Shown one piece after another: positions 43,991 through 64,000 of a stretch of DNA of 64,000 nt. Position 1 is the first letter of the stretch. The number at the start of each line of letters is the position of its first letter. The notes under the pieces were generated by a model that was not told the origin of the DNA, ran no database searches, and saw nothing but the letters and a program-made list of their open reading frames with translations. This DNA comes from a virus (Duplodnaviria; Caudoviricetes): the IMG/VR virus record IMGVR_UViG_2934470325_000001, positions 1 to 64,000 of that record; one strand, given 5' to 3'. A program made the position numbers and the translations under genes.

Positions 43991-44359
43991 TCAGGCCGTC
44001 CGCTCGGCGGCACCAGCCGGCTTGTCCTTCACGCCGGCTTCCTGCGCCGCATCCGACACGCCCGTCGGCTTGAACAGCCCGAAGTGCACCGCCACGGCGA
44101 TGCCGAAGTTGATGAGGGTGGAGTACACCACCGGGATCCACTCGAACACCGCCGACGTGTTCTCCGCCTGCAACCACGCCGACAGGATCGAGTTGACCGC
44201 CGACAGGGTCAGCAGCAGCACCGCCTTCACGCCAGGACTGGTGGAGCGGCGGGTGACGAGGCCGACGAGGATCGGCAAGAGGATGGTGATGGCCAGGGAC
44301 AGCAGCCCGCCAAGGTTGGGGGCGAAGCCGTACACGGGCAGTGCGGGGATGTCGCTCAT
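43991..44359 (-). CDS. holin
   Basis: 3 TM, LPILVGLVT, HFGLFKPTG; position after lysin. Confidence 0.8.
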   Translation of the reverse strand: MSDIPALPVYGFAPNLGGLLSLAITILLPILVGLVTRRSTSPGVKAVLLLTLSAVNSILSAWLQAENTSAVFEWIPVVYSTLINFGIAVAVHFGLFKPTGVSDAAQEAGVKDKPAGAAERTA

Positions 44360-44436
44360 GTGACCCCTCCAGGGGTGATCTTGAAGGGCCTACCCGACAT
44401 GAGGGCAGGCAGAAGGAAACGCCTACGATCGGCGTT

Positions 44437-44790
44437 GTGGCAGGCCAACCGCAGGTACGCGAGTCAGCGTGGCTGCACGCGCCCGCAAACCCGTACGTGC
44501 CGCTCGCCCACATGCGGCTAGAGGAACGCATGGATGGCACGGGGTGGGACCTGTACGTGTCCGACCCGGCCTCCGCCCCCAGTCAGCACGTGTGCTGGCC
44601 CGACGAGGACGGGGCACGCGGTGAGATGGAGCGGCTCTACACCGCCGGGCGGGCAGACGGCGAATGGCGCATCACACAGACCGGCCGTTCACCGCAGGCG
44701 GCGACGGACGCCCCACCAGCCGACGCAACGCATGAATATCCGGCTCCGGCCGCCACACCTCCGCCTGCACCGACGTCAACGTGTCCGTGA
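44437..44790 (+). CDS. hypothetical protein inserted antisense in lysis module
   Basis: TACGAT 7 nt before GTG; 3' end overlaps convergent gene. Confidence 0.4.
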   Translation: MAGQPQVRESAWLHAPANPYVPLAHMRLEERMDGTGWDLYVSDPASAPSQHVCWPDEDGARGEMERLYTAGRADGEWRITQTGRSPQAATDAPPADATHEYPAPAATPPPAPTSTCP

Positions 44791-45121
44791 ACCGGCCAAC
44801 CTCCCTGGTCATCCGCTTCAAGCGGTCCTCCAGCTCGGTGATCTGCGCCCGCAGCCGGGCCACATCCGCGTCAGCCTCATCGCGGATCCGCTCAGCCCGA
44901 TCCTCCGACTCCCGCGCTTCTTTGCGGGCGGCCTGCTCACTGGCCTGCAACTGGGTCGCCCACTGCAACATCGCGTCCCTACGCGACGCCCTACCGGCAA
45001 CCCGGTTGGTGATGGCGCTGACGACGATCGCCGCAGCAGCCGAGATCAAACCGACGATGACGGTGGTCGCATCCAACCCTGACGAGGCGGCAGCGAACAT
45101 CAGTCCGTAGGTGGGGTCCAT
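44672..45121 (-). CDS. TM + coiled-coil lysis-module protein
   Basis: single TM then heptads. Confidence 0.7.
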   Translation of the reverse strand: MDPTYGLMFAAASSGLDATTVIVGLISAAAAIVVSAITNRVAGRASRRDAMLQWATQLQASEQAARKEARESEDRAERIRDEADADVARLRAQITELEDRLKRMTREVGRFTDTLTSVQAEVWRPEPDIHALRRLVGRPSPPAVNGRSV

Positions 45122-45531
45122 GCTGGTTGTCCTTTGCTGGTGACCGGCTCTGGCCAGCCCGCGATCAACCACACACACATCGCGAACGCACCCCACACCG
45201 CCGCCGACACCCAGCCATCCGGCACGTTGCCGAGGACCCAGCCGGACAGGTACAGGGAGAACCAGAGGACTTTGATTCCGATGGCCGCGCCGAACGCCAA
45301 CCTGTCGCAGTCCCGCACCGACCCCAGGGTGCAGGCGACAGCGATGGCGATCCACAGAGCAGCCCACGGCCACAACGGCATGATGCCGTGCAGCCAGGCG
45401 TAAAACGGCTGGGCGTCGGGCTGGGCGGTGGCGAGACGCAGCCCGTAGGCGACGTCGAGGCCGGCGAACACCAGTAGGGCTATGCCTCGCCGGCCGACCC
45501 GGTGCTGCAACCGTGCGACCGCCCTACCCAT
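45100..45531 (-). CDS. 4-TM lysis-module membrane protein
   Basis: four hydrophobic helices directly after lysin. Confidence 0.75.
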   Translation of the reverse strand: MGRAVARLQHRVGRRGIALLVFAGLDVAYGLRLATAQPDAQPFYAWLHGIMPLWPWAALWIAIAVACTLGSVRDCDRLAFGAAIGIKVLWFSLYLSGWVLGNVPDGWVSAAVWGAFAMCVWLIAGWPEPVTSKGQPAWTPPTD

Positions 45532-46472
45532 CAGGACATGCTGCCGTCGGAGACGCGGCCGGTGAACGTGAACGTCGCCGGCAGTTCCAGACGTCCCGCC
45601 GGCCCCTGCGGACCGGGGTCACCCTTCGGCCCCTGCGGACCCGCCGGACCCTGAGGTCCCTGCGGGCCGGCAGGACCGGGCTGGCCAGCACCGCCGTACC
45701 GCTTCGCCATGCACATCTGGAGTTGCACGTAGCCCCACGCATCGAACTTGTCGCCGGAGGTGGCGGTGCTGCCGACCGACTTGCGCATCCGCAGCACCGC
45801 CGCCGACGTGCCCGACCCGTAGACGCCATCCTCATCGCCGGCCTTGAAACCGAGATAGTTGAGGGCGACCTGGAGGGCCTGCACGTGCATGCCCTTGTCG
45901 CCGACCTGGCAGAACATCAGGAGTCCCCCTGTCGAAGTCGTCAACCCGATGTACGCCAGGTAGCGGCGGAACACCGGGGTCAGATCAGTGCCGGCCTTCG
46001 TGACATCCCGGAACACGCTGGCGTGCGTGTGGGACAGGTGCGAGGTGTCGCCGCTCGACCGACGCTTAAGCCGATCCCAGCGTTTGACCGTCACCCCGTC
46101 GGGCGAGTAGATGACCTCGCGGATCCACAAGGTGTCCGGAGCATTCGCCTCACACTCACCGACCAGCCACACGCTGAACGTGCGCAAGTTGTGCGTCCGC
46201 CCGTTGACGGTGACGCTGAACCAGCCGACGTCCAGGGCCGACGCGTAGTCGCTCAGCCCGGCCTTGTCCCGCGACGACTCGACCACCGAGTAGTCGCTGG
46301 TCACCACCCGGTCCTCGCCGCAGTGGTAGCCGCCCCGGTGGGCGCTGTCGGCGACGATACCGACCTCGTTCGGTTCGAGGTCCGCCGAGCGGGCCACACC
46401 CGGATCCATGTCCAGATGCGTGAGGAGCAGGGAACGGACCTGCATCAGGTTGGATGGTGCGCGGGTCACCAC
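45531..46472 (-). CDS. endolysin (Zn-peptidase-like domain + PG-binding domain + collagen tail)
   Basis: GGYH...SALD...HLSHTH; VQALQVALNYLG...DGVYGSGT; 12 G-X-Y triplets. Confidence 0.8.
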   Translation of the reverse strand: MVTRAPSNLMQVRSLLLTHLDMDPGVARSADLEPNEVGIVADSAHRGGYHCGEDRVVTSDYSVVESSRDKAGLSDYASALDVGWFSVTVNGRTHNLRTFSVWLVGECEANAPDTLWIREVIYSPDGVTVKRWDRLKRRSSGDTSHLSHTHASVFRDVTKAGTDLTPVFRRYLAYIGLTTSTGGLLMFCQVGDKGMHVQALQVALNYLGFKAGDEDGVYGSGTSAAVLRMRKSVGSTATSGDKFDAWGYVQLQMCMAKRYGGAGQPGPAGPQGPQGPAGPQGPKGDPGPQGPAGRLELPATFTFTGRVSDGSMS

Positions 46473-56929: not shown

Positions 56930-57276
56930 CAGCGCCTACCGCCCTTCGTGCTGGTCGTGGACGTGCTGGGGGCGGTGGTGTCCTCGGTGGCGCTCGCGGT
57001 GTCGGTGCCGGTGGGCGTGTCGCCTCGGCCTTCACCGGCGGTGCCGTCGCCCTTCGGTGCGGCGTCGCTGCCGGCGAGGTCGGTGCGGTACTTCGCCGGT
57101 CGGGCGCGGCGGCCCCAGTTGAGTGGGTAGTCCGGCACGGGGGTCATGCCGTCACGGATCGCGGTCTGCGGCACGTCGTAGCGGTGACCGGTGTCGGCGT
57201 CCTCCACCCAGACGAACGGCACCTTGCCGGTCGTGTCGCGTGGCGTCCGCCGGCCGCCGAGGCGGTCGTCAGCCAT
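56929..57276 (-). CDS. hypothetical virion-module protein
   Basis: position, RBS. Confidence 0.6.
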   Translation of the reverse strand: MADDRLGGRRTPRDTTGKVPFVWVEDADTGHRYDVPQTAIRDGMTPVPDYPLNWGRRARPAKYRTDLAGSDAAPKGDGTAGEGRGDTPTGTDTASATEDTTAPSTSTTSTKGGRR

Positions 57277-57287
57277 TACTGGTCCTC

Positions 57288-57740
57288 TCAGGTCGTGCTT
57301 CGGTTAGGTGAGCTGTGCAGGGTGAAGAAGACCGGCGCGAAGTAGATGCGCCTGCCATCCGGGCTCTTGACGTTCGGATCGACGGAGGGCGGGCCGGGGA
57401 TGCCGGGCTCCTGCTCGATGTCGCCGCAGCGCCGGCCGGGGATAGTGGGCCGTTTGCGGTGCAGCACCCGCCGGGCGCGGTCGGCAGCACCGAGCACGTC
57501 CATGGGGGTCAGGCCGACACAGGTGATTTGGGTGCGGGTCCACACCTCGCCGCCGTCCCCGGCTATCCGCTCCACCACCGGACTGCCCACCGCACCCCAC
57601 ACCACGTAGTGCGGGAAGGTGAGTTCGGCGTCGGGCACGTTGACGTCGCCCTCATGCACCTGAAAGGCGGTACCGGTACGCAGCATCTCCGCGACGGCCT
57701 GGGCGTGATCGACGGACGGCTCAACCGAAGGGGCAGTCAC
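57288..57740 (-). CDS. tail terminator
   Basis: FPHYVVW, TQITCVG; position. Confidence 0.7.
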   Translation of the reverse strand: MTAPSVEPSVDHAQAVAEMLRTGTAFQVHEGDVNVPDAELTFPHYVVWGAVGSPVVERIAGDGGEVWTRTQITCVGLTPMDVLGAADRARRVLHRKRPTIPGRRCGDIEQEPGIPGPPSVDPNVKSPDGRRIYFAPVFFTLHSSPNRSTT

Positions 57741-57756
57741 CGGCGGCCACCCCCGA

Positions 57757-58122
57757 TCAGTCGAACGGGTCGCCGATCGCCTCACATGCAGCGATGAAGC
57801 CCGGGGTGATGGCGTCGAGCGATGGGCCAACGAACGGCTGAGGGGCCATACGGGACGTGCCGCGCTCTACGAAATGGCTGTACGAAGCCTCCGGCCCCCA
57901 CTCGCCTTCCAGGCCGTCACCACTGAACTCGTGACTGACAGACGACCGCATGAACCCGGTGTCCACCGCCGCAAGGCTCTTGGCTATCGCCTCACCGGCG
58001 AGCGTTGACTTGCGCACCACCTGGGCACCCTTCGGCCCGATGTGTTTCTCGGCGGTGCGGAGCTGCACTTCGATGGTGGTCAGCTCTGCCCATCCGTCAA
58101 CGGAGATGGAGGCCACGGTCAC
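57757..58122 (-). CDS. HK97 gp10-like neck protein
   Basis: AVDTGFMRSS, YSHFVERGTSRMAPQPF. Confidence 0.85.
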   Translation of the reverse strand: MTVASISVDGWAELTTIEVQLRTAEKHIGPKGAQVVRKSTLAGEAIAKSLAAVDTGFMRSSVSHEFSGDGLEGEWGPEASYSHFVERGTSRMAPQPFVGPSLDAITPGFIAACEAIGDPFD

Positions 58123-58550
58123 CCCCGCCGGTTGATCGGCTCCTCAACGTCGCAGCCGACATTCCGCTGCCAACTGAGGCCGGAGCGGGGCACATCCACC
58201 ACCCGCAGCCGCACACCGAGCAGAGACGGGTCGCCGTCGCATCCATCGACCACCCACACATCCCGCACATGCGGCACAGGAGTGTCAGCGGGCAGGATCA
58301 GCAGGTAGCCGCCGACCGCCACAATCCGGTCGGCCTGCACGCCCTGCGCCCCGCTGTTCGCGCGTATCCGCGCCCGACCCGAGTAGATGAGCACCGGATT
58401 GGGAAACGTCGTGGTGCCGGTCCCCGGATCGCGGGTACCCGTCTCGGAGGGGCGCAGCAGACGACCGAACACGGTCATCGCCGCCTCAGACACCGGCCGG
58501 TGATGAGACTCGAAGCGTGGATGAATCAGGCGGTGGTTGGGCAGCGGCAT
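58119..58550 (-). CDS. head-tail stopper
   Basis: LIYSGRARI; position. Confidence 0.7.
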   Translation of the reverse strand: MPLPNHRLIHPRFESHHRPVSEAAMTVFGRLLRPSETGTRDPGTGTTTFPNPVLIYSGRARIRANSGAQGVQADRIVAVGGYLLILPADTPVPHVRDVWVVDGCDGDPSLLGVRLRVVDVPRSGLSWQRNVGCDVEEPINRRG

Positions 58551-58561
58551 TCCGGCACCCC

Positions 58562-59218
58562 CTACAGGTACGAGTCGCCCCAGCTGACAGGCTCGGGGAA
58601 CGCGTACAGCGGCAGCAATGCCTGACCGGGCGCGGTGCCGCCGTCCTGTTCCTCGTCGGCCGCCTGCTCCCGCAGCATCTTCGCCAACGCCCTCAGTTCG
58701 GCGGCAACGGCAGCGCCGTTCGTCGTCAAGTCTTGCGTGCTGATGACCTTGGATATCAACACCTCTGACCCGGCGATGATCTCCAACGCGGCGGCTGCAC
58801 CCCGCTTGACGCTGCCGCCCTCTGCCGTGATCAGTGCGGCAAGCTGGGCGTCCTCGAAAAGCGGGGCTGCCTCGTCGAGGTCGGAGATTCGCAGTCGCAC
58901 CATGCCAACAGGGGTGGCCGGGTCAACGGCGATGGGCGGGAGGCCAACCAAGTCGCGGGCGGCCACGAACTTGCCTTGCACCGCATCTTCGGCGGTGCCG
59001 GTCGCGGTGAGGCTGTACGTGTGGGTGCCGGCGGCTGCAACCTGGTAGACGGCCCGGTAGGTGCTGCCGTCAGCGGTGACCGTCATGGCAGCGGTCGTGC
59101 CGTCGGGGCGGGTCACGTCGCCCGCCACGGTCGCGCCCGTCACCGGGTCGCCGTCGACACCGCGCAGTGCCCATTCGGCGACGAACTGCTGCCCCTGCCA
59201 GTAGACGCGTGCGCTCAC
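58562..59218 (-). CDS. head-tail adaptor with extra N-terminal Ig-like domain
   Basis: C-half VGMVRLRISD...FEDAQL adaptor; N-half TRPDGT...GTHTY beta sandwich. Confidence 0.75.
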   Translation of the reverse strand: MSARVYWQGQQFVAEWALRGVDGDPVTGATVAGDVTRPDGTTAAMTVTADGSTYRAVYQVAAAGTHTYSLTATGTAEDAVQGKFVAARDLVGLPPIAVDPATPVGMVRLRISDLDEAAPLFEDAQLAALITAEGGSVKRGAAAALEIIAGSEVLISKVISTQDLTTNGAAVAAELRALAKMLREQAADEEQDGGTAPGQALLPLYAFPEPVSWGDSYL

Positions 59219-60549
59219 AGCAGGGTCACCTCCGACCGTTGAGGCGTGGAGACTGTGCTGCCAGCGGGGATACGAACCTCACCCCGGGCGGGCGGTGGGA
59301 GCGCGACGTCTGCAACCGACCATCCGGTGCTGGTAGCCCCGTCCACCGTGGCTGCTGTTGACCAGACTGCGGTCAGGGATCCGCCTGCGGGTGCGGTGAC
59401 CGACCAGCCGGTGGTGATCACACCCGACGTGAGGGCGGCAACATCCCACACGGTGGCGCTGCTACCAGTGGCCGTTGACCGCACCGACCAGGAGGTGCCC
59501 GCGTTGCCGCTGGCTGTGGCCGAGGTATCCCAGCCGGTGGAGACGCTGCCTGCCGCCGCAGCTAAAGCCGACCACGCGGTGCTGACGCTGCCGCCCGTCG
59601 GACTGGCCGTCGCCCAGCCTGTTGCCGTGCTGCCTGACACCTGCGCGGCCACATCCCACGAGGTGTTGACCGCGCCGCCGGCCGCAGCGTCAACCGCCCA
59701 GTCGGTGGCGACCGCACCCGACGCGGTGGATGCCACAGACCAGCCGGCTGCTGTCGACCCGGACGCCGTTGACGTGACCGACCATGCCGTGGCCGCCGCG
59801 CCGGACAGCGGGGAAGCCACCGACCACGTTGTACTTGCGCCACCCGTGACCGGAGCCGACACCGACCATGCGGTTCCAACCGTCCCCGACACCGGCGTGG
59901 TAGTCGCAGTCGGGGCAACCTCCACCAGCAGACCGATCATGGAGCTGCTGACATCGGAGGTGACAGTCTCCCCGCCGTAACTGCCCGTCGACCCGACCAG
60001 TACGTACCCGGCTGCCGCACGCACGTTCGCGTTCGTCGTCGCCCGAGACGTGCTGTGGTCGACGACCTCCGTGTAGGAGCCGTCGAGGTTGATGTTGGTG
60101 GGGATGGTGCCGGACCCGACGCGGCTGTGCGCGTCCACCAGCAGCGCCGCCCCGGCCGTCACCCCTGTCAAGGTGGGCAGGGTGACCGTCGTGCCGGTCG
60201 CGTTGGCGGCGGCGGCCTGCGCGATGCTGTCCGCCCCGCGCACCACCAGCAGTTCCCAACCGCCCGTCACGCTGCCGGAGTTCGTGATTGTCGGCGCGGT
60301 GTCCCCGGATTGCAGAACCCGATGCCAGGCGTACACCCGGGATGCGGACCCATCCGCGTACGGCCACGTCACCCCGGGCAGCAACGTCCACCCGGCAGGC
60401 GTCGACATGGTGAGGGATCCGCCGGACACGTGCCCGACGAGTAGGCCGATGTCGCCGGCCGCCCATCCGACAGGAAAGGTGGTGACAAAGCTGGTCGCGG
60501 TCGCCGAGCCAGGGTTGCCGGAGGCGACACCCACGTAGGAGACCGCCAC
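59215..60549 (-). CDS. fibre-like structural protein with 14 x 14-aa Trp-periodic repeats
   Basis: W every 14 residues in Ser/Thr/Ala/Gly-rich C-half. Confidence 0.7.
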   Translation of the reverse strand: MAVSYVGVASGNPGSATATSFVTTFPVGWAAGDIGLLVGHVSGGSLTMSTPAGWTLLPGVTWPYADGSASRVYAWHRVLQSGDTAPTITNSGSVTGGWELLVVRGADSIAQAAAANATGTTVTLPTLTGVTAGAALLVDAHSRVGSGTIPTNINLDGSYTEVVDHSTSRATTNANVRAAAGYVLVGSTGSYGGETVTSDVSSSMIGLLVEVAPTATTTPVSGTVGTAWSVSAPVTGGASTTWSVASPLSGAAATAWSVTSTASGSTAAGWSVASTASGAVATDWAVDAAAGGAVNTSWDVAAQVSGSTATGWATASPTGGSVSTAWSALAAAAGSVSTGWDTSATASGNAGTSWSVRSTATGSSATVWDVAALTSGVITTGWSVTAPAGGSLTAVWSTAATVDGATSTGWSVADVALPPPARGEVRIPAGSTVSTPQRSEVTLL

Positions 60550-60565
60550 TGCGACCTCCTGCCCG

Positions 60566-61492
60566 TCAGCGCATCAGGTCGACGAACGCAGCCCGCTCGC
60601 GGTCCCGCACGTACGTCCGCCCGTCGGGGTAGGTCAGGGTCGCGTCGAGGTGGCAGTTGCCCCGGTAAAACCACGCGACGTACGGCACATCACCCTGCGC
60701 CCGCAGGTACGCCATGTTGTCCCGCATCGCCTGCGCGCAGACCGCCCCGTCAGGGTCGTAAGCAGCGCCGGACTTGAGCGCCGGTTTCCGCTGAATACCC
60801 CACTCGGGAACCACTAGCGGCTTGCTGACCTGGCGGGCCACAGACAGGGCGAAGTCGTTCCGCTCGACCGGGCTGCGATACCGCTCGTATCCGGTGTCGT
60901 AGATGTCGAACCCGACGGCGTCCACCCCAGCGAGCGCTGCCACCTGCCCGAAGTCCTGCCACCATGCGTTGTTGCGGCGCGCGGCGTACTCGGTGAACAC
61001 GGGCACCAACCACACCTCACGCCGTCGCGGATGGTCAGCGAGCGCTTCGATCAGCTCCTTCCATCCCTGCCGGTACTCGGCGGGGGTTGGGTCGCCAGAT
61101 TCCTGCTGCTCAGGCTCGTGGTCAAGGGTCAGCAGGTCCACCACGCCGCGTCGTACCACCGGCCGCGTCGACAACCAGTCCCGGATCAGCGCCGGGGAGG
61201 TGGCGCGAGACCAGTCCTTGAACGAGTAGTGCAGCACCGTGTCCGCTGGCACCTGGGCGAGCATCCCCGACGACCACGGCGCGACGCCCTTTCCCGGTGC
61301 ACTGTAGAGCCGCATCAGTCGGGGTTGCGGGTAGCGGGCCGCCATGCGCTGAATGTCTGTCACAGTGCTGTCCGGCGGGCACCAGCCGAGCAGGGTCGGC
61401 CGGTCCTGCACGGTAACCGTCGTCGCCGTGACGGTCGTGTGGCCGGCGGCGTCACGTACCCGCCCGGTCAACACGACCGTGCGGGCAGCCAT
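60566..61492 (-). CDS. clan GH-A (GH26-like) glycoside hydrolase
   Basis: TLDHEPE, VDAVGFDIY, KPLVVPEWG. Confidence 0.75.
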   Translation of the reverse strand: MAARTVVLTGRVRDAAGHTTVTATTVTVQDRPTLLGWCPPDSTVTDIQRMAARYPQPRLMRLYSAPGKGVAPWSSGMLAQVPADTVLHYSFKDWSRATSPALIRDWLSTRPVVRRGVVDLLTLDHEPEQQESGDPTPAEYRQGWKELIEALADHPRRREVWLVPVFTEYAARRNNAWWQDFGQVAALAGVDAVGFDIYDTGYERYRSPVERNDFALSVARQVSKPLVVPEWGIQRKPALKSGAAYDPDGAVCAQAMRDNMAYLRAQGDVPYVAWFYRGNCHLDATLTYPDGRTYVRDRERAAFVDLMR

Positions 61493-61764
61493 CAGGCGAC
61501 CGAGACTGTGAACCGGCCGGGGGCCGACGGGTCCGCGACGATCGTCACGCCCGGGTCGTTTGCGGTCAGCTCGTAGGTGAGCGGATCCCCGACCGTGACC
61601 GTGGTCGTAGCGGATGCGGTGACACCGTTGGCGTCGGTGACACTGCCGGACAGGGTGATGGTGCGGGCGTCCGGGTCGAACGCGTCGATCCACACCTGCA
61701 CGGCCTGTCCGGGCTGCACCGTGTCCAGGGAAGCAGAGATGGAGCGGATGATCGGGGCGGCCAT
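61492..61764 (-). CDS. 90-aa Ig-like beta-sandwich protein
   Basis: APII..ISAS..TVQPG..V....DPD...GDPLTY. Confidence 0.7.
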   Translation of the reverse strand: MAAPIIRSISASLDTVQPGQAVQVWIDAFDPDARTITLSGSVTDANGVTASATTTVTVGDPLTYELTANDPGVTIVADPSAPGRFTVSVA

Positions 61765-61784
61765 GCGGGTTCCTATCTGAATCA

Positions 61785-62321
61785 TCAGAGGGTGTCGCCG
61801 AGCCACGCGAACGTCGCGCCGTCGGCGGCGAGAGCGGCGGTGTTGGCGGCGGTGCGCCGCACCCAGAACGCCTTCACCTGTCCGGGGCCGATGTCGCCGA
61901 GACTGAGCGCGGCCCCGCTCGTGGTCGGGGTGGAGAACGTGACCCCAGCGGGGGCGGTCGTGTCGTTGGCGATCTGCACCGCCTGAGCCGACGACGACCC
62001 GACAGCGGACGCGGCGGTCGGATCCACGCCGATCGCCACCGACGCACCACCCGACACCTCGGCGGAGATGTACACCTTCGCTGACTGGAGCGTCAGGCTG
62101 CCATGAGTGTTGTGCACGAACACGCAGGCGTAGTCGACCTGCGATACAGCGTTCTCCGCACCCGTGATGTTGGGGAACAACCCGTTGGTGCTGCCGTCGG
62201 CGACGACGGTCATCGACACGTACTTACCGAGCGACGCCCCCACAACCCCGGCGGTGGTGTTACCCGCAGAACCCGAGACGACGGACAGTTTGAACACAAT
62301 GTCGGACGCGACGATCGCCAC
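61785..62321 (-). CDS. beta-rich structural protein (head/neck appendage candidate)
   Basis: AGGAGG RBS; SLGKYVS, DYACVFVHN, LGDIGPG..AFWVRR. Confidence 0.7.
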   Translation of the reverse strand: MAIVASDIVFKLSVVSGSAGNTTAGVVGASLGKYVSMTVVADGSTNGLFPNITGAENAVSQVDYACVFVHNTHGSLTLQSAKVYISAEVSGGASVAIGVDPTAASAVGSSSAQAVQIANDTTAPAGVTFSTPTTSGAALSLGDIGPGQVKAFWVRRTAANTAALAADGATFAWLGDTL

Positions 62322-62425
62322 GACACACCTCCTACGGGCGGGTTGCGATCACGAGAACCTGCGCTGCGTGTGACTGCTGGACACCCCGGCCGCCCGGGGA
62401 GATGGGCGGCCGGGGTGAACGGGGG

Positions 62426-62923
62426 CTACTGCTGCCGCTGCTGGGCGAGCTTGACCAGGTCGGCCTTGTCCTGCTTGGCGAGGTCGTCGTAGTTGCCGCC
62501 CTGCGCGACATGCCACTCCACCCACACCGGCTGGCCGGCGTTCGGGTGCGGCGCGGACCCGTCCTTGGGCAGCTTCGCCTGCGCGGCGGCCCTCTTGGTG
62601 TCAGTCGAGTCAGCGCCGGACTGGTCACCGGTGGGCTGCTCACCCGACGAGTAGGTGGAGGTGAGCACGCCGTCGCTGTCGCGGCGCGGCGCGTCGCCGT
62701 CGAGGTCGTCCGCCTCCGTCGCGGTGAGTCCGTCGGCGTTCACCCCGCCCGTCTCGCCCCCGCCCACCTTGACGACGAGGCCGGAGTCGAGCAGGTGCTT
62801 CAGTTCGGGGGCGTTGCCCGGGACGAGCGCGCCCTTGTACATCAGGACGCGGGTGCGGCCGGACGGGGTGTCGGTGGACACGTAGGCGCATTCGCCAACG
62901 ATCTGGTAGGTCGTGTCACTCAT
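62426..62923 (-). CDS. post-capsid hypothetical protein
   Basis: directly after capsid; helical C-terminus. Confidence 0.7.
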   Translation of the reverse strand: MSDTTYQIVGECAYVSTDTPSGRTRVLMYKGALVPGNAPELKHLLDSGLVVKVGGGETGGVNADGLTATEADDLDGDAPRRDSDGVLTSTYSSGEQPTGDQSGADSTDTKRAAAQAKLPKDGSAPHPNAGQPVWVEWHVAQGGNYDDLAKQDKADLVKLAQQRQQ

Positions 62924-62938
62924 CGGTCATCCGTCCTG

Positions 62939-63874
62939 TCAGCCCAGCGCGCCAGTGCCGGTGATCTTGATGGCGGCACCCGGCTCCTGGATGACCGGCA
63001 CCGTGATGCGGCGGGCCCAGATGTCCCAGGCGTCCCGCTCGTCGATCCGCTTCGTCTTGTACTGGAGCCCGTTGTCGAGGGTCGCGTAGCCCGGGTCCAC
63101 GTCGGTCTCGTCGGCCATGCCGCCCAGCTCGTCCCGGTCGAACACCCACACATCGTCCGACGGGAGGTTCGCCACGGCGGTGGCGATGATCTCGTACTTG
63201 CCGAGACGGTCGATCTCGCCGCCGTAGATCGGGTTGTCGGAGGTTTCCCGACGCCGCAGCGCCGCGATCGCCGGATCGGTCACCAGCATCGCGTACTTGG
63301 TGGTGGACATGAGCACCGCGTTCGGGTTGTAGCCCTGGTTCAGGTCGACGATCTTCGCCGCCGCGACCTCCACGTCGCGGAACAGGGCCGGCGACGCGGC
63401 GTTCCACGCGGCAGCCGCCGCCGACGTGTTGGTGACCGCCGACGCCATCGCCGCCGTCGACAGCTTGTCGACCTTCGAGATGACCGTGTTCGCGGTCTTC
63501 CGCAGCGCCCGGTTCACCTCCTGGCCCATGTACACGCTGCGCTTCAGCTTCTCGTCGGTGAGTTGGACCGCCTGACCCCACTTGCTGACGGCAGCCAGCG
63601 CGGCGGTGCCCTCGGCGGGCGTGTCACGCGGGTACTCGGAGCCGGGGGCCACCGACTCGATGGCCCGGCTGTTCATGATCGGCTCGGACATCTCGTAGGC
63701 GACCGCGCCGCCCTGGGTGCGGATGCGGTTGGTGAGGATCCGGTCCGCGACGAACCGCAGTTCGTCGATGGTGCGCAGCCGACGCTGAAGGCGGGTCGGG
63801 TCCTGGAGGAGACGGTGGATGGTGAGCAGGTCGCCGGCCAGCGTGGGGGCGGCCGGAGGGTAAGCGCCCGGCAT
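62939..63874 (-). CDS. major capsid protein
   Basis: VAPGSEYP, KWGQAVQLTDE, VIQEPGAAIKITG; 311 aa. Confidence 0.9.
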   Translation of the reverse strand: MPGAYPPAAPTLAGDLLTIHRLLQDPTRLQRRLRTIDELRFVADRILTNRIRTQGGAVAYEMSEPIMNSRAIESVAPGSEYPRDTPAEGTAALAAVSKWGQAVQLTDEKLKRSVYMGQEVNRALRKTANTVISKVDKLSTAAMASAVTNTSAAAAAWNAASPALFRDVEVAAAKIVDLNQGYNPNAVLMSTTKYAMLVTDPAIAALRRRETSDNPIYGGEIDRLGKYEIIATAVANLPSDDVWVFDRDELGGMADETDVDPGYATLDNGLQYKTKRIDERDAWDIWARRITVPVIQEPGAAIKITGTGALG

Positions 63875-64000
63875 TCGGGGGTTCCTTCCATGGTTGCCCG
63901 GCTGGCGGGCACGACGAAGAGGCCCGGCACGCGGGTGCGCGTGGGGCCGTAGGTGTGTGCGGGTGTTCCGGTGGTGCCCGCCGCCGGTCAGGTCGGCGGG

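Follow-up and report, generated by a model that had tools for sequence, protein, structure and literature searches.

The stretch of DNA studied here, which we call the window, comprises the initial 64 kb of an IMG/VR provirus record of 108.6 kb with a G+C content of ~69%, and it carries two coupled genes whose products, on balance, probably form a tag-and-socket pair. A small Ig-like protein of 90 residues (Ig-90) would be the acceptor, a glycosidase bearing an N-terminal beta-hairpin would be the donor, and the two would make up a heterodimer-like complex. Comparison, not structure, supports the view that the hairpin of the enzyme completes Ig-90 or extends it; the physical binding of the pair and the task of the complex are what we infer. 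The elements of the window to which the text refers are the following.

62939-63874, minus strand: gene of the major capsid protein (phrog_1650)
61785-62923, minus strand: genes of two small proteins (165 aa and 178 aa), flanked by the capsid gene and the pair
61492-61764, minus strand: gene of Ig-90, the putative Ig-like socket protein (90 aa)
61591-61668, minus strand: internal beta-hairpin of Ig-90, residues 33-58, flanked by DPD and GDPLTY
61490-61494, minus strand: TGATG stop/start overlap of the Ig-90 and enzyme genes
60566-61492, minus strand: glycosidase gene (308 aa; PF11790)
61409-61486, minus strand: N-terminal hairpin of the enzyme, the putative tag, residues 3-28, matching Ig-90 in the self-comparison
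60566-61408, minus strand: linker and catalytic domain of the glycosidase (PF11790)
61115-61117, minus strand: invariant Glu126 of the glycosidase
60803-60805, minus strand: invariant Glu230 of the glycosidase
59215-60549, minus strand: gene of a 444-aa repeat protein, downstream of the pair
43994-46472, minus strand: the prophage's own lysis genes (313-aa endolysin-like protein, 166-aa hol-like membrane protein, 122-aa holin)

The annotated late genes lie at ~43-64 kb of the window, with a siphovirus-type late gene block on the minus strand; for positions 1-36000 the analysis took in base composition and a list of ORFs. Of the two small proteins that separate the capsid gene from the pair, the 165-aa protein matches phrog_2322, annotated as head-tail connector (4.5e-11), and the 178-aa protein matches phrog_13135, a family of unknown function (6.8e-27). 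The 444-aa protein is followed by neck proteins, the major tail protein, the tape measure protein, minor tail proteins and the lysis genes, among which the 122-aa holin matches phrog_8269 (4.3e-19). Within the pair, the TGA stop codon of Ig-90 shares one base with the ATG of the enzyme (TGATG), while the start of Ig-90 at 61764 is common to its homologues and has an AGGA ~9 nt upstream. The translation of 61492-61764 is identical to the 90-residue sequence on which the earlier note on this DNA was built. Neither Ig-90 nor the glycosidase carries a signal peptide, and, by reading, there is no slippery heptamer ahead of the Ig-90 stop that would point to a programmed frameshift fusing both genes.

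Searches with the small protein show that it has a genuine family. A word-based search returned ten close homologues of 89-96 aa, and those with source names come from Micromonospora. The Ig-90 profile, searched against 1.84 billion representatives, gave 580 matches at E<=1e-3 (125 of them at E<=1e-10), which split in two: stand-alone proteins of ~90 aa, and giant repeat proteins that are matched piecewise. All 88 stand-alone members that were aligned begin with Met-Ala-x-Pro and stop after the same last strand. In the genome samples it is rare: of 401 genomes of the class 3 have it, and of 301 from the bacterial family 27 do, 18 of these with stand-alone copies and 9 with multi-domain proteins; a scan of the genome collection for small-protein loci yielded at least four. 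In P0048 (358 aa), an unrelated N-terminal domain of ~265 aa precedes a complete small Ig-like protein, whose usual last strand ends the chain. None of 50,697 deposited phage records has the module according to tblastn with P0001, P0061 and P0002, and megablast of positions 57000-64000 of the window against phage records returned nothing. Longer relatives of P0001 were absent at E<=1e-5, which is weak evidence, and ten proteins searched against NCBIfam gave zero matches.

The closest known relatives of Ig-90 are the tandem bacterial Ig-like repeats (Big_9 PF17963, He_PIG PF05345 and cadherin-like), which share with it the A-B-DPD start and the T/V-rich hairpin motif; the small-family profile matches many giant repeat proteins. 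Unlike them, Ig-90 stands alone at 90 aa and is without a terminal G strand. Ig-90 falls under the Pfam gathering cut-off for Big_9 (12.9 bits against 23.6, E 0.21) and He_PIG is not among its Pfam matches; the Atlas clusters nearest to it carry He_PIG and Big_9 with a score of 0.87, which we treat as a lead only.

To place the small protein on these repeats we used a canonical profile of 90 positions, derived from 326 tandem repeat instances of the multi-domain matches. In this profile DPDGD.LTY is contiguous and a T/V-rich hairpin closes the domain, as the earlier note says of such repeats. Residues 3-57 of Ig-90 align to canonical positions 3-57 (6.5e-11) and positions 58-90 are left uncovered; in N-anchored alignments, positions 82-90 are covered in none of 24 split small proteins, which confirms that the C-terminal hairpin is missing. 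In one of them, L021, the best alignment sets residues 23-56 (the B strand and the internal hairpin) on positions 54-88. The internal hairpin had been described as lodged inside the DPD|GD loop, and its residues are indeed flanked by DPD and GDPLTY, but HMMER favours a collinear alignment of 31.8 bits, in which the first strand of the hairpin falls on canonical strand C and the hairpin provides the domain's own C-C' strands, whereas insertion into the DPD|GD motif appears as a second alignment of 10.8 bits only.

The strands that the small protein does not cover are found on its partner. The canonical profile spans positions 2/3 to 88/89 in six of seven natural fusions, with the tag in the place of F-G; the small protein contributes A, B, C and C', then an insertion of 25-30 residues, and its last strand replaces E. 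The seventh fusion, P0038, has no fit to the profile. When the tags were compared separately, in a set of 55 sequences, 18 of 24 matched best at positions 63/67 to 82/89 (i-E<=0.05), and the tag of the window had its best match, a weak one, at positions 65-88, that is, strands F-G (i-E 0.052); the tags of G4, L025 and L048 showed no significant match to canonical F-G. Judged by profile coverage (0/24 among the split proteins, 6/7 fusions completed by the tag), the putative acceptor is an Ig-like fold without its terminal strand or strands. Under the collinear alignment, a single four-stranded sheet would hold the internal hairpin (C', C) next to the tag (F, G).

The genetic linkage between the small gene and a tagged partner is complete in our sample. 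A profile scan of loci gave 36 entries, which represent 28 distinct pairs; as these are related sequences from one bacterial family, they amount to about seven independent lineages. Each full-length small protein in these entries has a partner after it, and all 28 pairs are joined, 24 by a stop/start overlap (with ATG or GTG) and four by in-frame fusion, and additional fusions occur in the protein matches P0049 and P0038 and in L022. Every partner begins with 20-28 residues that read as a hairpin around an Asp/Asn-x-x-Gly turn, and at least four sequence families are represented among these partners. Type T1, to which the enzyme of the window belongs, and type T2 are related (28-31% identity), and T3 (345 aa), T4 (311 aa) and T5 have no significant BLASTP match to T1 or T2 or to one another. 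For T3 and T4 there is no Pfam or NCBIfam match, except for a weak Pfam hint of a beta-helix in L048, and PDB sequence searches with both gave nothing significant; because a Pfam match is missing, T3 and T4 are read as putative enzymes solely from their motifs. As T3, T4 and T5 are without a significant match to the other types, what the pairs share is the combination of small gene and tag rather than the small gene by itself.

A second comparison was made among the glycosidases themselves. The 301 genomes of the family contain 18 homologues of the enzyme, five with the hairpin and 13 without. All five that bear it are fused to the small gene or lie within 1.5 kb of it; none of the 13 others is near the small gene, and in these the homology begins past the hairpin, inside larger ORFs. 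Taken with the 28 of 28 joined pairs and the six of seven completed fusions, this distribution sustains the part of the earlier proposal in which a donated hairpin would complete an Ig fold, with the tag of the enzyme as the donor.

The enzyme passes the Pfam cut-off for PF11790, Glyco_hydro_cc (26.3 bits against 21, E 6.6e-6, residues 126-281). The name GH26 is the NCBI label of one homologue only, P0021. In 23 glycosidase sequences, H125-E126-P127-E128 (HEPE) and E230-G232 (EWG) are invariant, and from the motifs of clan GH-A we take Glu126 and Glu230 to be the putative catalytic pair. The same sequences have a linker of varying length after the tag, and a PDB sequence search with the glycosidase profile found no significant solved relative. 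The window glycosidase thus has its catalytic domain and two invariant Glu in common with clan GH-A (PF11790; GH26-like) and differs from the PF11790 family at large in its N-terminal hairpin, which 13 of the 18 homologues lack; further homologues carry, in place of the hairpin, an unrelated domain of ~250 aa or a signal peptide followed by a Pro/Thr linker. In M. rubida (L018, G004:C12; protein P0021), only positions 1-43 of the small protein precede a T1 glycosidase, to which they are joined by a shortened hairpin, an arrangement that looks like a deletion between both hairpin-coding stretches.

The two hairpins of the window also resemble each other. Residues 33-63 of Ig-90 and the first 31 residues of the enzyme are 55% identical (E 8.1e-4), in agreement with the earlier observation that the enzyme starts with a similar hairpin. 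In five of seven lineages, the local score of the internal hairpin against its own tag exceeds all of 500 shuffles; in the G3 lineage 13 of 500 shuffles attain the score, and in the fused lineage, where the resemblance is gone, 206 of 500 do. The internal hairpins of G4 and G4c match only their own tag (with scores of 44 and 40, where no other tag scores above 32), and in G4 the internal hairpin and the tag have a longer turn in common. Recent gene conversion is an unlikely source of this likeness, given that the hairpin-coding DNAs of the window are identical at 50 of 84 bases and that 10 of 15 same-residue codon pairs differ (codons counted by eye). The joint change of the hairpins would be explained by two neighbours in one sheet and also by two keys for one socket.

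For the small protein alone, AlphaFold2 with an alignment of 88 sequences gave a model with a pLDDT of 93.8, a pTM of 0.68 and six strands (residues 5-11, 21-29, 34-43, 49-58, 73-77 and 84-89), in which the internal hairpin has a pLDDT above 90; it supersedes one built on 11 sequences, which had a pLDDT of 77.8 and matched no fold. Strands were assigned from the sequence alignment and the DSSP string. Foldseek found no match to the model at E<=1e-3 in PDB and BFVD; its alignments have an rmsd of 15-20 Å, and the weak matches include pore-form alpha-hemolysin chains. An exhaustive aligner returned only weak matches to Ig-like structures (FdeC, invasin, intimin and the C-terminal domain of lambda gpV), with a best Z of 5.6 and with 54-66 of the 90 residues in the alignment. 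A confident model that does not superpose on a closed Ig domain is only consistent with an atypical or incomplete sandwich. Mean-field covariation (113 sequences, Neff 99) said nothing on strand pairing, its top pairs being artefacts of gaps and sequence neighbours.

A small protein that AlphaFold2 folds with such confidence by itself (pLDDT 93.8) may need no partner. The two genes could then be operon partners without docking, with Ig-90 as an autonomous, complete Ig-like domain, for example a separate glycan- or wall-binding protein, and the hairpin of the enzyme as a relic of an old gene fission or a piece of the enzyme's own fold. Besides the monomer model, this fits the HMMER-preferred alignment, which is collinear and without insertion, the length of Ig-90, whose 90 aa equal a whole canonical repeat, and the ease with which T/V-rich hairpins come to look alike. 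It is nevertheless rather unlikely in our judgement, as the hairpin is retained on partner families without detectable sequence relation and is missing in 13 of 13 homologues without the small gene, the last canonical strand is never covered by the split proteins, and the linker between the tag and the catalytic domain is variable.

The genomic surroundings of the pair differ from one locus to another. In the window and in L003, L004 and L005, it lies between head and neck genes. In the prophages L070, L006 and L007, it lies between endolysin or membrane-protein genes and the holin gene (phrog_8269, phrog_9752), and in L071 a fused version adjoins HNH and terminase genes. In L067, L068 and L069, the pair (fused in one of them) stands among ordinary chromosomal genes, namely those of a permease, a GNAT acetyltransferase, an ECF sigma factor, thioesterases and MEDS proteins, with no phage genes among the neighbours scanned. 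In the window, the place equivalent to that of the pair in L070 is a gap of ~310 nt without a called gene (44360-44674). Given these differing settings, the common denominator is a two-chain enzyme, not a fixed part of the virion. Placement at a virion tip, as formerly suggested, is accordingly not general: three prophages have the pair in a lysis cassette and three genomes on the plain chromosome.

The 444-aa protein consists of an N-terminal domain of ~210 aa and 14 Trp-centred repeats of 14 aa, and it matches phrog_6079, annotated as tail protein (5.4e-10); Tandem Repeats Finder detected no repeats at the DNA level in its gene. Four loci (those of the window, L003, L004 and L005) have this protein, or a 381-aa repeat protein, after the pair. 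The 444-aa protein is missing from the lysis-cassette and chromosomal versions, and its link to the pair is uncertain. A proposed similarity of its N-terminal domain to that of P0024 and P0029 was rejected, as BLASTP and hhalign found none.

As the two genes of the window are flanked by those of the capsid and the neck, the complex may be carried on the virion in this prophage, and in the related prophages it may act at lysis; in the prophage of the window it may have either a virion-borne or a lysis-time role. The lysis-cassette loci bear on another explanation, to which we give little credence, that Ig-90 is a chaperone, inhibitor or immunity partner which, until release, keeps a potentially self-damaging wall hydrolase folded or without activity. 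A small beta-sandwich gene coupled right upstream of a hydrolase, two proteins without signal peptides and the presence of the pair in the lysis cassette of three prophages would suit such a function. Natural in-frame fusions of both parts speak against it, however, as do the homology of Ig-90 to the ordinary Ig repeats that secreted multi-domain proteins carry as accessory domains and the lack of any sign of an element that blocks the active site.

The settings also weigh on the chain proposed in the earlier note, in which copies of Ig-90 would pass their hairpin onward to a neighbour in a pilus-like polymer and the enzyme, a donor only, would cap it on the virion. The likeness between the internal hairpin and the tag, and their joint change, are what one shared socket would lead us to expect, and fusions, which have a tag in cis, show a drifted internal hairpin; the rmsd of 15-20 Å and the pore-form alpha-hemolysin matches would suit a protruding hairpin, and in the window the genes do sit between capsid and neck genes. 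The collinear alignment, on the other hand, makes the hairpin the C-C' strands of the domain itself, so that a donating subunit would lose half a sheet; in the monomer model this hairpin is predicted in place with a pLDDT above 90; six loci elsewhere are in a lysis cassette (three prophages) or on the plain chromosome (three genomes); and neither gene occurs on any of the isolated phage records searched. The chain is thus left unsupported, though not refuted, by these results, and we regard it as very improbable.

Given the likeness of the internal hairpin of Ig-90 to the tag, subunits might exchange hairpins. If the internal hairpin and the tag were interchangeable keys, the pair could belong to an open-ended, hairpin-swapping scaffold at or near the virion neck which, together with the 444-aa protein, loads tagged enzymes of several folds. 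We assign this speculative reading a low probability; if true, it would be a natural, non-covalent and modular enzyme-loading system.

The explanation that we prefer remains the tag-and-socket pair, and its steps would be as follows. Ig-90 would be an Ig-like domain of the Big_9/He_PIG kind that ends ahead of its last hairpin (strands F-G), and the enzyme would consist of the missing F-G hairpin, then a linker, then a glycosidase domain of clan GH-A type. The tag would settle next to the internal hairpin (strands C-C') and complete a C'-C-F-G sheet, so that the two chains would be held together non-covalently, akin to donor-strand complementation in pili. Ig-90 would serve as an accessory or targeting Ig-like domain for the enzyme, and the complex would most likely cut a glycan of the Micromonospora cell wall or surface.

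Among the titles and abstracts that our literature searches brought up, none describes the module. If the chains join via the hairpin as proposed, the pair would be a natural split beta-sandwich that works as a portable docking device, in which one small socket protein takes the 26-residue tag of enzymes whose sequence families are unrelated. Such a device would account for the way in which actinobacterial prophages exchange glycan-cutting enzymes yet keep one partner, and a principle so far known from pili would gain an example that is cytoplasmic and comes from phages.

That principle is best known from the chaperone-usher pili (Fim, Pap, Caf1), in which an Ig-like fold open at its C-terminal end is completed by the N-terminal extension of the next protein. 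The window pair would resemble them in the C-terminally incomplete Ig-like fold and in the N-terminal donor on the next protein. It differs in that a two-strand hairpin would be donated instead of a single strand and that the donor is an enzyme; there are no signal peptides, no chaperone or usher genes among the annotated neighbours, no indication of a polymer and no sequence relation that we could find, which makes this an analogy, not a membership.

A second point of reference is PlyC, a two-component phage lysin made of a small binding subunit, PlyCB, and the catalytic PlyCA, whose docking does not involve strand complementation. Here the likeness consists of a small non-catalytic and a catalytic subunit encoded by neighbouring phage genes. 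In L070, L006 and L007 the pair lies in the lysis cassette, as would be expected of a PlyC-like lysin; in the window it lies elsewhere.

The last comparison concerns portable tags. In the cohesin-dockerin system the dockerin is a helical calcium-binding module, and in the man-made SpyTag/SpyCatcher the tag makes an isopeptide bond; unlike SpyTag, the system of the window has no conserved lysine in the alignments of the small protein and of the enzyme. What the pair would share with both is a short, portable tag on varied enzymes and a small beta-sandwich partner, and, if the proposed docking is true, it would offer protein engineering a small, non-covalent tag-and-socket pair.
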